A DNA stretch of 64,000 bases from Candidatus Woesebacteria bacterium RBG_13_46_13 (lineage in GTDB: Bacteria > Patescibacteriota > Microgenomatia > UBA8517): positions 177,148-241,147 of the forward strand of contig MGFR01000001.1 of NCBI GenBank assembly GCA_001791995.1, read 5' to 3'. Under the pieces are notes generated by a model. That model made no database searches. It worked only from the letters and a program-made list of their open reading frames with translations, and was not told the origin of the DNA. This document shows positions 1,365-15,454 of the stretch, one piece after another (within the stretch, counting starts at the first letter, position 1; each line of letters begins with the position of its first letter). A program made the position numbers and the translations under genes.

Positions 1365-1393
1365 TTGACAGACATTAGCACTCATGTTAATCT
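1365..1393 (+). promoter_or_regulatory. sigma70-like promoter TTGACA-17-(TGt)TAATCT upstream of hrcA
   Basis: TTGACA at 1365-1370, 17-nt spacer, TG-extended TAATCT at 1385-1393, 20 nt before hrcA ATG. Confidence 0.45.
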
Positions 1394-1401
1394 TCTGCTA
1401 A
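1375..1401 (+). promoter_or_regulatory. CIRCE-like HrcA operator (TTAGCACTC-N9-TTCTGCTAA), right arm partly degenerate
   Basis: Left arm matches CIRCE consensus TTAGCACTC exactly; 9-nt spacer; right arm keeps TGCTAA; overlaps the hrcA promoter directly upstream of hrcA-grpE-dnaK-dnaJ. Confidence 0.5.
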
Positions 1402-8605: not shown

Positions 8606-9436
8606 ATGGAAAATTCATTTGGCTCGATTATCAACTCAGCGAACTCTATCTTGATCCTTCTTCCCTTGAAGCCCTACTTCGACCAGGTCGCGGCAGCGCT
8701 TTCGCTTTATTTGGCCATCAAAGGCAAAAAGGAGGCAACTATAGTTTGCACCACACCCATGATAGTGGAGTTTAACCGCCTAGTCGGGGTGAATAAAATC
8801 TCGACCGAAGTCGGAAACAAGAATTTGGTTATCCGTTTTGCCGGCTATAAGGCCAGCGAAATTGAAAAAGTCAGTTACGATGTCGAAAACGGCGAATTTC
8901 GTCTGACCGTGGTACCCAAAGCGGGGTTTGTCTCTCCTAAAAAGGAGCAGGTTGACCTTGGCTATTCTGGAATTTCAGCGGACACCGTAATTTTGGTGGG
9001 TGGAGCGATGGAATCGCACTTCCCAACCCTTTCCCAGGAAATCGCAGGGGCCAAGATTTTGCATATAGGGACCAGAGCCCTATCTGGAAGCGCCGCGCTT
9101 TCCTTTGCCAGACCTGCTTCCTCCACATCGGAGCTGGTTGCCCAGCTTATCGCCGAGGCCGGCCTGACTCTCGATGCGGATATCGCTACCAATTTACTGA
9201 TGGGAATTGAGGAGGGTAGCCGTGAATTCAAAGGACAGGATGTTACCGCTGATACATTTCAGACGATTGCAACATTATTAAGAGCCGGTGGGAAAAGAGG
9301 CGGAGCCAGGCCGGAGAAAACCACATTCCCGGTCGGGGCCATTCCCGGAGAAGTTTTTCAGGAGCCGGAAAAGAAGGAAGAACCTCCTAAAGATTGGCTG
9401 GAACCGAAGATTTATAAAGGGACAAGCGTTAGCTAG
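8606..9436 (+). CDS. DHH/NrnA-like phosphoesterase-fold protein with non-conserved catalytic motifs (probably inactive)
   Basis: Length and layout resemble NrnA (DHH plus DHHA1), and it sits in the infB neighbourhood as in other bacteria; the expected DHH Asp/His and GGGH motifs are substituted (LKPYFDQ..., GGKRGGA). Confidence 0.4.
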   Translation: MENSFGSIINSANSILILLPLKPYFDQVAAALSLYLAIKGKKEATIVCTTPMIVEFNRLVGVNKISTEVGNKNLVIRFAGYKASEIEKVSYDVENGEFRLTVVPKAGFVSPKKEQVDLGYSGISADTVILVGGAMESHFPTLSQEIAGAKILHIGTRALSGSAALSFARPASSTSELVAQLIAEAGLTLDADIATNLLMGIEEGSREFKGQDVTADTFQTIATLLRAGGKRGGARPEKTTFPVGAIPGEVFQEPEKKEEPPKDWLEPKIYKGTSVS

Positions 9437-9845: not shown

Positions 9846-9859
9846 AATTGAATAAAAAA

Positions 9860-12079
9860 ATGAAGAAAGTTGAAAAATCCATCGAATTAGGTGGAAGAAA
9901 GTTAACACTCCAAGCAGGAGTTTTAGCAGAACAAGCCTCGGGTGCAATTTTGGCCCAATACGGTGAGACGGTTGTATTAGCAACGGTTGTCTCGGCGCCT
10001 CTTAAGGTTGATTTGGGGTATTTCCCCCTGACGGTTGAGTATCAGGAAAGGCTTTATGCCGGCGGCAGAATAAAAGGGAGCCGTTGGGTCAAACGCGAGG
10101 GACGTCCTTCCGATGAGGAAATTCTCTCCGCCAGGCTAATCGACCGTTCCATCCGACCTCTTTTCCCGGAAACCTACAAAAAAGACGTTCAGGTCATGAT
10201 CACCGTTCTTTCTGTTGATATCGAAAACGACCCGTCGGTCCTATCCGCCATTGCGACTTCGGCCGCCATTGCGATTTCCCCGATTCCCTGGAAGGGTCCA
10301 GTGGGAACTGTACGTGTCGGTAAAAAAGACGGCACTTTCTTTACCAATCCTCAGGATTCGGAAATGGCATTTTCGGATATGGATTTGGTGGTTTCTTCAA
10401 CCAAGGACGCCGTTTTGATGATTGAGGCGGGAGCCAAAGAGGTAGATGAAGAAGCGGTTTTGGGAGCAATTGAGCATGGACAAAAAGACGCAAAGAAAGT
10501 AATTGAGCTAATTGAGGATTTAGCCAAAGAGGTTAAGGTGGAAAAAGAATCTGCCGGAGAAGCCCTTTTTACGGCTGAAACAAAGACTAAAGTTAAAAAA
10601 CTCCTGGAGGGAAAGGCCGAAGATTTGATAAAGGTTATGGCCGAGCGTGAAGGCGGAGGGGAACTTGACGAGATTAAAACAGCGATTGCTCAGGAATTAA
10701 GCGAAGAATCCCCGGCGGCTGTTTCCTTAATTGTAGAAAAAATAGTTAAGGAAAAGGCCAGAGAAATAACCCTGAAGGGCAAAAGGGTTGATGGCAGAAA
10801 GGTTGACGAGATAAGAAAACTTTCAAGCCAGGTCGGAGTTCTTCCCAGGACCCACGGCAGTGCAATTTTTCAAAGAGGACAAACACAAGTCTTAACCGTT
10901 ACTACTCTTGGAGCCCCGTCTCTGGGGCAACTTCTTGAGTCTGCCGAAGGCGAGGAATCAAAAAGATATATGCACCATTACTCAATGCCTCCCTATTCGG
11001 TAGGGCAGACAGGCAGGGTAGGTTATCCGTCAAGGCGGGAGATTGGTCACGGAGCTTTGGCCGAACGGGCACTGGAGCCTGTAATCCCGGCAGAAGATGT
11101 CTTTCCTTATGCAATTAGGGTGGTATCCGAGGTCACCAGTTCAAACGGCTCAACCTCAATGGCCTCCGTCTGCGGCTCGACACTTTCCTTGATGGACTCG
11201 GGTGTTCCCATTGCCTCTCCGGTTTCGGGAATTGCCATGGGTTTAGTCATCGATACTCCGAAAAAGTATGTGGTCTTATCCGACATCATGGGACTTGAGG
11301 ATTATATGGTCGGGGATATGGATTTTAAGGTGGCGGGAACCCAAAAGGGAATAACCGCGCTGCAGCTGGATGTTAAAACCTTGGATTTAAGTCTTGAGAT
11401 TCTCGGCAAAGCCCTCTCCCAGGCCAAAGAAGGCCGCGCAAAAATTCTTAAAAGCATTCTTGAGACACTTCCGGAGCCCAGAAAAGGCGTTTCCGCTTTT
11501 GCACCCAAAATTAAAGTAGTGAAGATTTCCCCGGAAAAGATTGGGGAAGTCATCGGTCCTGGGGGAAAGATGATTCGAAAGATTATTGCCGAAACAGGAG
11601 CCCAGGTTGAAGTCGAGGACGACGGCAGCATTAATGTTTCTTCCATCACCGATGCCGCGGTTGCGGCAGCGATTGAAAGGATTGAAGGCCTGACCAAGGA
11701 AGTTGCCCCAGGCGAGATTTATGACGGGGAGGTCAAAAGAATTCAGCCTTTCGGCGCATTTGTGGAGATACTCCCGGGTAAAGACGGATTGGTTCATGTA
11801 TCCGATATGGGTGAGGGCTTTGTAAAAAATCCGGAGGATGTGGTGAAACTTGGAGATAAAATTAAAGTCCGGGTCAAAGAAATCGACAATTTGGGGAGAA
11901 TAAACCTTTCGATGAACATGGACCCATCCAAGGACAAGCCTAGAGCCGAAAGAAGAGATAGCTTTGGCCCCAGGAAATTTGAAAGAAGACCCAGTAGGGG
12001 TTTTGCAGACAAAGGTGGTTTTGGTGGACCCCATTTCCCCACGAGTAGATTTGTGGATTCCAAGAAAAAAGGCTTCTAA
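9860..12079 (+). CDS. pnp: Polynucleotide phosphorylase (PNPase)
   Basis: Two RNase PH domains, a KH domain (KIGEVIGPGGKMIRKI) and an S1 domain; classic rpsO-pnp pair; ATG at 9860 is preferred over the TTG at 9848. Confidence 0.93.
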   Translation: MKKVEKSIELGGRKLTLQAGVLAEQASGAILAQYGETVVLATVVSAPLKVDLGYFPLTVEYQERLYAGGRIKGSRWVKREGRPSDEEILSARLIDRSIRPLFPETYKKDVQVMITVLSVDIENDPSVLSAIATSAAIAISPIPWKGPVGTVRVGKKDGTFFTNPQDSEMAFSDMDLVVSSTKDAVLMIEAGAKEVDEEAVLGAIEHGQKDAKKVIELIEDLAKEVKVEKESAGEALFTAETKTKVKKLLEGKAEDLIKVMAEREGGGELDEIKTAIAQELSEESPAAVSLIVEKIVKEKAREITLKGKRVDGRKVDEIRKLSSQVGVLPRTHGSAIFQRGQTQVLTVTTLGAPSLGQLLESAEGEESKRYMHHYSMPPYSVGQTGRVGYPSRREIGHGALAERALEPVIPAEDVFPYAIRVVSEVTSSNGSTSMASVCGSTLSLMDSGVPIASPVSGIAMGLVIDTPKKYVVLSDIMGLEDYMVGDMDFKVAGTQKGITALQLDVKTLDLSLEILGKALSQAKEGRAKILKSILETLPEPRKGVSAFAPKIKVVKISPEKIGEVIGPGGKMIRKIIAETGAQVEVEDDGSINVSSITDAAVAAAIERIEGLTKEVAPGEIYDGEVKRIQPFGAFVEILPGKDGLVHVSDMGEGFVKNPEDVVKLGDKIKVRVKEIDNLGRINLSMNMDPSKDKPRAERRDSFGPRKFERRPSRGFADKGGFGGPHFPTSRFVDSKKKGF

Positions 12080-12139: not shown

Positions 12140-13186
12140 ATGGATACTGCTGCCCAGGAAATTAGTTTACTGGAAGAAAAAATCAAGAAAGCTTCTTTGC
12201 CCGAAAAGCTGACCGAGGTTGTTTTGGTTAGGCTTAATCAGCTGACCAAGCTGACCAACTCCCCGACCTTCTTACCGGAATTTGACCGAATTGGCCGTTA
12301 TATAGACTGGATTACCAAGATTCCTTGGGGTCAAAAGACCCAGGACAGCTTGGATTTGGTAAATGCCAAGAAAATTCTCGACAAGAACCATTTCGGCCTC
12401 GGTGAGATCAAAGACAGAATTTTGGAATATATTTCCGTGATGAAACTCAAACAGGAAAAGGGCGAAGGCATCGAGATAACCCGCGCACCCATTCTTTGTT
12501 TTGTAGGCCTGGTCGGAACTGGCAAAACTACCATTGCCTTTTCGATTGCGGAGGCCCTCGGCAGAAAGTTTGCCAGAATTCCGTTTGGAGGAATGGGCGA
12601 CCCCCTGGATTTAAGAGGACAGTCGAGGATGTACGCCGAGGCCGAGCCCGGCAAGATTGTTAAATCCTTGGTGGTCAGCCAAAGCCGCAACCCGGTAATA
12701 CTGCTTGACGAGATAGACAGGGTAACCGATGCCGGCAGGGCCTCGATTATGGGAGTTTTGGTGGAACTTTTGGATCCCGAACAGAATCATGAATTTATCG
12801 ACCACTACATCGATTATCCGGTGGATTTATCGGAAGTCTTATTTATCGCAACAGCGAATAACACAACCAATATTTCAACTGCGGTTTTGGACAGAATTGA
12901 ACCCATCGCCATGCCGTCCTATTCGGACAACGAGAAAATTACCATCGGAATTTCGTATATCCTGCCCAAGGCAATGAAGGCCGCGGGAATTCCCGACGGG
13001 GCCCTGGTTATCGACCAAGACGTTTGGTCTAGCATCGTCAGGCCCTTGGGTTATGATGCTGGAATCAGAACGCTGGAAAGAACTATTGAAGGGCTGGTCA
13101 GGAAAGTCGCCCGAAGCATCGTTGAGGGAAAATCGACAGGTTTTCATATCAACGCCCAAAACGTCAGAGAATTTTTACCACAATAA
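12140..13186 (+). CDS. Lon-family AAA+ ATPase module lacking both the N-terminal domain and the S16 protease domain
   Basis: Aligns to the Lon region YIDW..PW..D...A...LD..H.GL..IKDRILEY, Walker A GLVGTGKTT, Walker B ILLDEIDR, sensor ATANN and LDRIEPI; the ORF stops exactly where the Lon protease domain would begin. Confidence 0.75.
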   Translation: MDTAAQEISLLEEKIKKASLPEKLTEVVLVRLNQLTKLTNSPTFLPEFDRIGRYIDWITKIPWGQKTQDSLDLVNAKKILDKNHFGLGEIKDRILEYISVMKLKQEKGEGIEITRAPILCFVGLVGTGKTTIAFSIAEALGRKFARIPFGGMGDPLDLRGQSRMYAEAEPGKIVKSLVVSQSRNPVILLDEIDRVTDAGRASIMGVLVELLDPEQNHEFIDHYIDYPVDLSEVLFIATANNTTNISTAVLDRIEPIAMPSYSDNEKITIGISYILPKAMKAAGIPDGALVIDQDVWSSIVRPLGYDAGIRTLERTIEGLVRKVARSIVEGKSTGFHINAQNVREFLPQ

Positions 13187-13187
13187 G

Positions 13188-13802
13188 ATGGAAGAGAAGG
13201 AAAAATCAGCAAGACTCCAGGATTTAAAAAAGAGAATGCAAAACGACACGGCTCTGCCTTTGAGAAATTCAGCCACCCAATTGGTTTTTGGTGAAGGCAG
13301 CCCTGATACTAAAATATTCTTTTTGGGAGAAGGCCCTGGTTATTGGGAAGACCAGAAAGGCAGACCTTTCGTGGGAAATGCGGGCGCTCTACTCAACCAG
13401 CTGCTTTATTCTATTAAACTACCCAGGCAAGACGTATTTATCACCAACGTGATCTGTTTTAGGCCACCGGAGAACAGAGATCCTTTACCCGAGGAGATTG
13501 AAGCTTTTAGGCCCTATATCGACGAAATGATTGATATCATGAAGCCTAAGCTGATTGTTACTCTGGGGCGCTTTTCTATGGCCAAATTTGTTCCCGGAGC
13601 CAAGATAACCGCTGTTCACGGAAAATCTTTCGTTGTAGACTGGAAGGGAAGAAAAATTACCGTTGTTCCGATGTTTCATCCTGCAGCGGCCTTAAGAAGC
13701 GGGGAAGTATTGCGAATGATTAAAGAAGACTTTATGCTTCTTCCTGATATCCTTAAGAAGGAAAACCAGGTACAGGCCGAACAGATGAATTTAAGCATAT
13801 GA
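13188..13802 (+). CDS. Uracil-DNA glycosylase, family 4-like
   Basis: GEGPGYWEDQKGRPFVGNAGALL motif A and a HPAAALR-type motif B; ATG at 13188 follows the Lon-like stop directly. Confidence 0.8.
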   Translation: MEEKEKSARLQDLKKRMQNDTALPLRNSATQLVFGEGSPDTKIFFLGEGPGYWEDQKGRPFVGNAGALLNQLLYSIKLPRQDVFITNVICFRPPENRDPLPEEIEAFRPYIDEMIDIMKPKLIVTLGRFSMAKFVPGAKITAVHGKSFVVDWKGRKITVVPMFHPAAALRSGEVLRMIKEDFMLLPDILKKENQVQAEQMNLSI

Positions 13803-15454
13803 AAAATAGCCTCAAATTTATAGCACTCTCCGGTACGACCGGAGTAACCGAAAATTTCTATATTTATGAATACGGAAACGATATGATCATCGTCGACTGT
13901 GGCGTGGGATTTCCCGAGCATGACATGCTCGGGGTGGATTTGGTCATCCCGGATTTTTCCTATGTCAAGAAAAATATCTCCAAACTGCGCGGAGTACTTA
14001 TTTCTCACGGACACGAAGACCATCTCGGAGCTTTACCCTTCCTCTTAAAAGAGATAAAAACTCCCATCTATTCGACGAAGCTGGTTGCGGGTTTTATTGA
14101 GGATAAATTTGAAGACTATGGATTACCGAGCCCGAGGGTTGTGGTTTTTGATCCGGAAAGGGACGTTATCTCTCTGGGAGTTTTCAAAGTAGCACCCTTT
14201 AGGGTCTCACACTCCGTTCCCGACGGTGTCGGCTTTGCAATCGATACCCCCGAAGGAAAAATTTTCCACGTCCCCGACTATAAGTTTGACTGGACCCCGG
14301 TCGACGGGAAGCCCTTTGATGTGACCAGAATGGTGTCTTTGGCGACAGGGGGCGTATTGGGTGTGGCATCGGATTCCTTAGGCTCCACAACTCCTGGCTA
14401 TACCGAAAGCGAGAGGGAAATAGAAGGCAAACTGGAAGAGATTATCAGGAAGGGCAAACGACGTGTTTATTTCACCACGATTTCTTCGAATATTTCCAGA
14501 GTTCAGCAGGCACTACAGGTAGCTGCCCGTTTGGGCCGCAAGGTGAGTTTTGTCGGAAAATCAATTGACCGAAAAGCCGAAATTGCCAGGAACTTGGGGT
14601 ACCTGCATTATTCAAAAGATCTGGTTATCCCGGCAAAGCAGGCCGCCAAACTGCCGATCGAGAGAGTGATGTATATCATTTCCGGCAGTTACGGTCAGCC
14701 CGGAAGCGCACTCTATAGAGTGGCATTGGGGGATCACGATTTCTTAAAAATAGAGGCTAACGACTTGGTTGTTTTTTCTTCGGATCCGGCCCCGCCCGGC
14801 TCCAAGACAAACGTGGACTTTGTGGTGGATAAACTGATCGAGCTTAATGCCGATGTGCACTATTACGATGTTCAGGAGGATTTGCACGTCTCCGGGCACG
14901 GTAGCCAGAAGGATATCCTGATGCTTTTTGGACTTTTAAAGCCCAAATATTTTATGCCCATAGGTGGGACGGTTAGGCACATGAGGTCTTATAGCCTCTT
15001 GGCCCAAAGCATCGGGGCGGATGGCAGAAACGTCTTTGAGCTAACCCCGGGTGAAATCGTCGAGTTTAAATCCGGCCTGGCCAGGCTTTCCGGAAAGGTC
15101 CCTACCAGAAATATTTTGGTTGATGGCTTAGGAGTTGGAGATGTGGGCAACGTTGTCTTAAGAGACAGGCAGGTTCTTGCCCGGGACGGTGTAGCCATAG
15201 TTCTTTTGATGTTTGACGGGGCCAATAGAGTCTTGGTTGCAGACCCAGAGATAATCAGCCGAGGCTTTGTTTACGAGAACAAAGAGAAAGAGTTTCTACT
15301 TAGAGCCGGTAAAGATTTAAGGCGCCTTATTGAATCCAAAAAAAGAATAGACGGGAAACTTCTAAAAGACGAATCTCAAGACTTCCTTGAGAAGTATTTC
15401 TATGCAAAGACGGGCAGGCGCCCGATGGTTCTTCCCCTGATTGTGGAAGTATAA
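13799..15454 (+). CDS. rnj: Ribonuclease J (metallo-beta-lactamase/beta-CASP)
   Basis: HGHEDHLGALP metal-binding motif, beta-CASP region, 551 aa; start overlaps the UDG stop (ATGA). Confidence 0.9.
   Translation: MKNSLKFIALSGTTGVTENFYIYEYGNDMIIVDCGVGFPEHDMLGVDLVIPDFSYVKKNISKLRGVLISHGHEDHLGALPFLLKEIKTPIYSTKLVAGFIEDKFEDYGLPSPRVVVFDPERDVISLGVFKVAPFRVSHSVPDGVGFAIDTPEGKIFHVPDYKFDWTPVDGKPFDVTRMVSLATGGVLGVASDSLGSTTPGYTESEREIEGKLEEIIRKGKRRVYFTTISSNISRVQQALQVAARLGRKVSFVGKSIDRKAEIARNLGYLHYSKDLVIPAKQAAKLPIERVMYIISGSYGQPGSALYRVALGDHDFLKIEANDLVVFSSDPAPPGSKTNVDFVVDKLIELNADVHYYDVQEDLHVSGHGSQKDILMLFGLLKPKYFMPIGGTVRHMRSYSLLAQSIGADGRNVFELTPGEIVEFKSGLARLSGKVPTRNILVDGLGVGDVGNVVLRDRQVLARDGVAIVLLMFDGANRVLVADPEIISRGFVYENKEKEFLLRAGKDLRRLIESKKRIDGKLLKDESQDFLEKYFYAKTGRRPMVLPLIVEV

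Follow-up and report, generated by a model that had tools for sequence, protein, structure and literature searches.

Lon is the textbook AAA+ protease, in which the motor and the peptidase are carried on one chain, and a review (PMC9569914) says that all Lons combine ATPase and protease domains in this way. LonC from Meiothermus taiwanensis is a Lon-family member minus one of these two activities: it keeps the protease and is without ATPase activity (PMC3391209, PMC13069640). The protein described in this work is likewise minus one of the two, and it is the mirror image of LonC, keeping the ATPase and losing the protease. [quoted passage not shown] That fragment, however, is a limited-proteolysis product of the full-length protease, whereas ours is a natural, conserved and separately encoded protein whose pore loops have diverged. 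ClpX and HslU, both single-ring AAA+ ATPases, are also encoded without a protease domain, and they have known peptidase partners (ClpP and HslV) as well as docking elements. We use them as a working model for the action of the protein described here, which on the other hand belongs by sequence to the Lon family, not to ClpX or HslU, and for which neither a partner nor a docking motif was identified.

The gene under study lies in a 64-kb window (the whole stretch of DNA that was analysed). A preliminary description of it, based on the sequence alone, had proposed that it encodes a Lon AAA+ module standing alone, with neither the N-domain nor the protease domain. The analysis reported below agrees with this architecture and goes beyond it in two respects, namely the spread of the family across Patescibacteria labels and its location in a conserved operon-like block.

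Domain architecture, ATPase motifs and pore loops

The stand-alone Lon-type AAA+ ATPase gene (12140..13186, forward strand, as are its segments and neighbours given below) runs from an ATG start to a TAA stop at 13184-13186 and encodes a 348-aa product, hereafter Lon-AAA, composed of a three-helix bundle, a nucleotide-binding domain and a lid. A Pfam scan of the product returned AAA (PF00004, residues 119-255, E-value 6e-17, 62.8 bits against a cut-off of 21.2) and Lon_lid (PF22667, residues 280-332, E-value 8.5e-10, 38.6 bits against a cut-off of 27) and nothing besides, with no match to Lon_C (PF05362). The NCBIfam model 'lon' (TIGR00763) matched with an E-value of 1.7e-100, but over profile positions 253-570 of 795 only, and the score of 337.7 bits is below its equivalog cut-off of 608.05. 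The picture is the same for PRK10787 (profile positions 244-579 of 784; 245.1 bits against a cut-off of 891), and no model specific to a stand-alone Lon-AAA was found in NCBIfam.

Residues 244-579 of E. coli LonA are the end-to-end counterpart of the 348-aa protein (37% identity to E. coli Lon by tblastn). The preliminary claim that the product ends where the S16 domain should start is borne out by this alignment, which places the C-terminus at the position of E. coli Lon residue ~580, in the linker that leads to the S16 protease domain. Among solved structures, the best sequence matches are chains of LonA and LONP1 (3m6a, 2.9e-75), and residues 1-346 align with residues 4-339 of the E. coli fragment chain 6n2i. 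In the AlphaFold2 (AF2) model (pLDDT 91.3, pTM 0.85), the three-helix bundle (residues 2-60) gives way to a pair of linker helices and then to the nucleotide-binding domain, of alpha/beta type, and the helical lid; a Foldseek search with this model gave TMq values of 0.81-0.89 against LonA and LONP1 AAA+ modules and a TMt of 0.90 against 6n2i. The N-terminal bundle (12143..12319), modelled as helices at residues 2-17, 22-37 and 44-60, corresponds to helices alpha8-alpha10 in the LonA HI(CC) domain (domain names of the HI(CC) helices as in PMC6722904), and the alignment starts at E. coli Lon residue 244. At the other end, the conserved C-terminus EFLPQ (13169..13183) sits where LonA has the 'DYLG' linker to its protease domain.

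The resemblance of Lon-AAA to Lon is thus far beyond chance. It shares with LonA the three-helix bundle, the nucleotide-binding domain, the Lon-type lid and the same ATPase motifs, while the N-terminal domain (PF02190), the coiled coil of HI(CC) and the S16 Ser-Lys protease domain of LonA are absent. Since the S16 domain and the N-domain are missing, Lon-AAA cannot be a Lon protease, and with a score below the equivalog cut-off as well it should not be called one. Automatic names in JGI and in some UniProt records are 'ATP-dependent Lon protease' or 'Lon protease' (the PGAP name is 'AAA family ATPase'); on stand-alone proteins, such labels overstate the function.

We compared the motifs of 25 stand-alone representatives (taken at 50% identity) with those of 74 LonA representatives. 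The Walker A motif GLVGTGKTT (residues 123-131; 12506..12532) contributes K129, a Lys in 25/25 representatives, and the Walker B motif VILLDEID (residues 186-193; 12695..12718) contributes D190 and E191, both invariant in 25/25, in line with the preliminary statement that the Walker motifs are intact. Equally invariant (25/25) are N240 of sensor 1 (TANN, 12851..12862), R252 of the arginine finger (LDRIE, 12887..12901) and R310 of sensor 2 in the lid (DAGIRTLER, 13055..13081). In E. coli numbering these catalytic residues are K362, D423, E424, N473, R484 and R542, and they are invariant in the 74 LonA representatives too. The Walker A consensus reads GL(Q/V)G(T/V)GKT in the stand-alone set vs GPPGVGKT in LonA. 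Judged by sequence, all ATP-binding and hydrolysis residues of Lon-AAA, including the trans-acting Arg finger, are intact, and the invariance of the latter implies an oligomeric active site.

The substrate-facing elements are another matter. Pore loop 1 (RGQSRMYAEAEPG, 12614..12652) follows the pattern LRG(Q/R)S(R/K)xx(P/A)(D/E)AEPG in the stand-alone family vs GHRRTY(V/I)GA(M/L)PG in LonA, and its flanks are acidic in the former and basic in the latter. The protein from the window has Y165-A166, Y165 being the equivalent of E. coli Y398, whereas most close homologues have His at this position (the commonest motif is SRMHA) and some members of the family have Tyr or Phe followed by Leu (SRAYL, SRAFL). 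This Tyr is present in 74/74 LonA representatives; among 212 stand-alone sequences the position is occupied by His (98), Tyr (44), Phe (26), Ser (17), Glu (6), Asn (5) and others. An outright loss of the pore-loop-1 aromatic, which had been our impression from the 25 representatives, was softened by this larger sample, as His, Tyr or Phe account for 168/212. The pore loop 2 region (RVTDAGRASIM, 12719..12751) has neither the aromatic residue nor the RGDP motif seen in LonA; the stand-alone set has xRA(D/S)(I/V)M where LonA has (F/Y/W)RGDP. The median pI is 5.5 for the stand-alone modules vs 6.8 for the LonA AAA modules. In MtaLonA, Tyr397 and the pore-loop-2 aromatic Trp431 both touch the substrate and are needed for degradation (PMC8503904). 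Because pore loop 1 is non-canonical and the pore-loop-2 aromatic is absent, polypeptide threading of the LonA type is not assured for Lon-AAA.

Distribution, conservation and phylogeny of the family

An identical (100%) protein is annotated as hypothetical protein A2V61_03660 of Candidatus Woesebacteria bacterium RBG_19FT_COMBO_47_8, and altogether 4 independent contigs carry the same protein. Among close homologues, the best 120 (75-100% identity) span 342-365 aa, 113 of them being exactly 348 aa long, and their domain content is AAA and Lon_lid only. The preliminary description had argued that the truncated form is not a simple frameshift; the identical copies on four contigs and the wide occurrence of homologues of fixed length support this. 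An exhaustive HMMER search added stand-alone representatives of 348-669 aa (41-55% identity), again without Lon_C, which differ chiefly by disordered Q/P/S-rich N-terminal extensions. A profile built from the stand-alone representatives retrieved 3,924 proteins at E <= 1e-20; among the best 120 of these, 118 are 342-456 aa long with AAA and Lon_lid only, and the named sources are Candidatus Dojkabacteria, Candidatus Nomurabacteria and 'Patescibacteria group bacterium'.

To place the family in genomes, we searched a set with a single genome for each GTDB species using the family-specific peptide pattern [DE]AEPGxI[VI]K and followed the hits up by tblastn. The Lon-AAA gene was confirmed in 87 of the 120 loci returned, one of them in the complete Woesebacteria genome CP011214.1; the labels of the confirmed loci comprise Woese-, Levy-, Shapiro-, Ames-, Davies-, Curtiss-, Dojka-, Nomura- and Saccharibacteria, Microgenomates and WWE3. 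In 248 family sequences, the C-terminus lies 28-40 residues past the sensor-2 motif (median 34). The tail itself is conserved; it ends in ...EFLPQ in the close Woesebacteria-type homologues and is longer by six residues, P(E/A)DIG(V/T)(Y/L)S, elsewhere in the family. Comparison with an 88%-identical homologue gave a pS of 0.75 (saturated) and a pN of 0.087, and Lon-AAA is under strong purifying selection. Overall, the stand-alone Lon-AAA is a strongly conserved family across Patescibacteria (CPR) and not a broken gene. No paper on a stand-alone Lon-AAA family of CPR was found in our literature search.

Low-complexity extensions are common in non-Woesebacteria members of the family (P0127, P0132, P0141, P0144, P0145, P0148 and P0164), where Q/P/S/T-rich N-termini reach up to ~330 aa; in addition, P0144 has a ~140-aa insertion before Walker A and P0164 an S/N-rich C-terminal tail. 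A number of loci with a CPR-type Lon-AAA (L012, L014, L022, L026, L030, L049, L052, L053, L055, L064, L065, L073, L074, L081 and L082) are filed under 'uncultured Gammaproteobacteria' or 'Pseudomonadales', mostly 'binchicken' or co-assembly MAGs, and one under 'Nanoarchaeia archaeon'. Their proteins are 50-84% identical to those of Woesebacteria, and most of these loci also have S15, PNPase, RNase J or FtsK in the CPR order. The taxonomic labels look wrong.

The preliminary description had proposed a phylogeny of the AAA module. When AAA+ modules were placed in a neighbour-joining (NJ) tree, the stand-alone proteins grouped in a single clade, separate from canonical LonA, with a bootstrap of 58-65% for all 25 representatives and of 76% once the most divergent one was left out. 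Modules of tandem-AAA Lons, which are among the nearest relatives of this clade in the tree, are the only ones to intrude into it in bootstrap replicates. The tandem-AAA Lons are also without the LonA N-domain; they differ from Lon-AAA in having 2-3 AAA+ modules followed by Lon_C on a single chain, and the named examples, MFC1854773.1 (Candidatus Dependentiae) and P0137 (Candidatus Babeliales), come from another phylum. About 30 cluster representatives, all from outside the window, are tandem-AAA Lon proteases of this kind (including P0121-P0139, P0150, P0153, P0154 and P0160). For example, P0121 (MFC1854773.1; 1113 aa) has three AAA modules and Lon_C, and P0137 additionally has ankyrin repeats. 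A literature search returned no description of such 'stacked' tandem-AAA Lons.

Genomic neighbourhood

The window covers a housekeeping region (hrcA-grpE-dnaK-dnaJ, nusA-infB, rpsO-pnp, Lon-AAA, udg, rnj, ftsK, alaS and rpoBC) and also contains a ribosomal-protein cluster, secY and recA. The upstream neighbour of Lon-AAA, separated from it by a 60-nt spacer, is pnp (9848..12079), encoding polynucleotide phosphorylase. Downstream, a family-4 uracil-DNA glycosylase gene (udg, 13188..13802) begins with an ATG that a single spacer base separates from the Lon-AAA stop, and its own stop overlaps the start (ATGA) of the next gene, rnj (13799..15454), encoding RNase J. The preliminary description had a family-4 UDG gene beginning 2 nt after Lon-AAA, which fits the ATG at 13188, and the UDG assignment passed the TIGR00758 model (180 bits against a cut-off of 125.3). 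Lon-AAA is probably co-expressed with the housekeeping genes pnp, udg, rnj and ftsK.

The order rpsO-pnp-X-(udg)-rnj-ftsK, where X is Lon-AAA, recurs across the CPR radiation. A homologue of Lon-AAA is preceded by pnp in 44 of the 65 loci from other genomes that have enough flank. Of the 70 loci whose downstream flank reaches 900 bp or more, 27 have udg no further than 1.5 kb away, 23 have rnj as the immediate next gene, and 20 have neither. In one locus (L008), where synteny is otherwise broken, the Lon-AAA/udg pair is kept, with the stop and the start overlapping by one base. Other neighbours in loci with broken synteny include groES-groEL (L109 and L124, and also near the gene in L007), L25/FtsA and a VirB4-like ATPase, and nothing consistent emerged among them as a recurrent alternative neighbour.

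A scan of the window for HrcA/CIRCE heat-shock control found no CIRCE element near the Lon-AAA gene. The sole CIRCE-like inverted repeat in the window (1375-1401, forward strand; TTAGCACTC-N9-...GCTAA, 3 mismatches; ~0.03 expected by chance) sits a short way ahead of hrcA (1414-2142). Nothing relevant came out of Rfam and tRNA scans around Lon-AAA.

Some features of the neighbouring genes are recorded here in their own right. The UDG (13188-13802) has a single cysteine, located in VICFRPP. In typical family-4 UDGs a 4Fe-4S cluster is held by four Cys ligands, and the one-Cys protein from the window therefore cannot bind such a cluster. Between infB and rpsO there is a 276-aa ORF (8606-9436, forward strand) with no Pfam match on record; its position is conserved in two related loci (L005 and L006), likewise without a Pfam match, and in L008 the slot next to infB is occupied by a DHH-family protein.

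Possible functions of the stand-alone Lon motor

We favour, at about even confidence, the view that Lon-AAA descends from LonA and is a functional AAA+ ATPase that forms rings, remodelling or unfolding proteins with no peptidase covalently attached. According to this scheme, the S16 protease domain of a LonA would have been lost together with its N-terminal domain for substrate recognition. The remaining module may assemble into a ring, probably a hexamer as in LonA, and would hydrolyse ATP at the subunit interfaces. A more acidic pore, usually with His, Tyr or Phe, would grip polypeptides, which could be remodelled or unfolded without degradation by the protein itself. Lon-AAA would thus act as a ClpX/HslU-like motor or as a chaperone-like remodeller. 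The hexamer of LonA is stabilised in part by its protease ring and its N-domains, and that a ring forms without these is something we infer. For proteolytically inactive Lon, chaperone-type effects have been reported, and their interpretation is debated (PMC7072132).

The preliminary description had left two alternatives, a protease-less unfoldase or chaperone and a domesticated remnant. The former is retained here as a proposal, and the pore loops differ from those of LonA. The latter, in the sense of decay, did not stand in view of the fixed boundaries and the pN of 0.087. More generally, a decaying remnant of full-length lon, or an assembly or frameshift artefact, would account for the truncated architecture itself and for nothing more. 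We give it almost no credence and rejected it because the same protein occurs on 4 contigs, homologues of equal length number in the hundreds, pN is far below pS, the catalytic residues are invariant and no remnant of a protease domain is present in any frame. One live rival is a split Lon, i.e. a two-component protease in which the ATPase docks on a separately encoded peptidase (a Lon_C-only protein or another ring). The cut falls exactly at the linker between the AAA and protease parts, the C-terminal tail is highly conserved, and the placement of ATPase and peptidase on separate chains is an established arrangement among chambered proteases, with ClpX and ClpP or HslU and HslV as precedents (PMC7072132). 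On the other hand, tblastn of the 64-kb window in all frames with the protease domain of E. coli Lon returned nothing (best E-value 1.2), in keeping with the preliminary statement that no protease domain appears in any frame downstream, and the E. coli Lon N-domain gave nothing in the window either. A wider search with 12 protease-domain and 6 N-domain tblastn queries found no match in ~1.03 Mb, made up of the window and the fetched loci (8-kb blocks or up to 10 kb per side), among them ~90 gene-bearing loci in whose fetched flanks no partner peptidase was found. Split genes usually keep their halves side by side in some lineages at least, but among the 240 listed family matches there is neither a fusion of Lon-AAA with a peptidase nor a Lon-AAA gene adjoining a Lon protease half. 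An IGF-type docking loop was not identified in Lon-AAA. We regard the two-component protease as improbable.

The other live rival is a role linked to nucleic acids. Lon-AAA could work with PNPase, RNase J and UDG as a remodeller that strips proteins off RNA or DNA or assembles a degradosome-like complex. In the majority of related loci pnp and rnj enclose its gene, frequently with udg as the next gene; in the window there is a 1-nt spacer to udg and an overlap between udg and rnj, and the Lon-AAA/udg pair persists in L008 despite the broken synteny. Bacterial and mitochondrial Lon, moreover, bind DNA (PMC7072132). However, it is the whole rpsO-pnp-X-udg-rnj-ftsK block that is conserved, and adjacency may simply reflect an inherited housekeeping order. 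In addition, udg is missing in more than half of the loci, 20/70 have neither neighbour and several have unrelated ones. The acidic character of Lon-AAA (median pI 5.5 vs 6.8 for LonA) and of its pore flanks also speaks against this role, and no fusion with UDG was seen among the listed matches. On balance, a dedicated nucleic-acid-linked function seems unlikely to us.

A bolder extension of the remodeller reading concerns the whole phylum. Patescibacteria as a whole may be without a Lon protease, with the protease-less Lon motor serving as an essential stand-alone machine and representing a new functional class; we put this forward as a rather doubtful proposition. Within it, the motor might deal specifically with basic proteins associated with RNA or DNA and operate with the products of the PNPase, RNase J and UDG genes, or it might alternatively be the ATPase of a two-component protease.

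A large bacterial radiation conserves the Lon motor alone, with its ATPase residues intact by sequence and its substrate-gripping loops rewritten. If CPR genomes are truly without a Lon peptidase, this would inform our view of protein quality control in ultra-small bacteria with reduced genomes. In that event the family would likewise be a naturally 'AAA-only' Lon with which to sort out which functions of Lon, chaperone-like or nucleic-acid-linked, do not depend on proteolysis.
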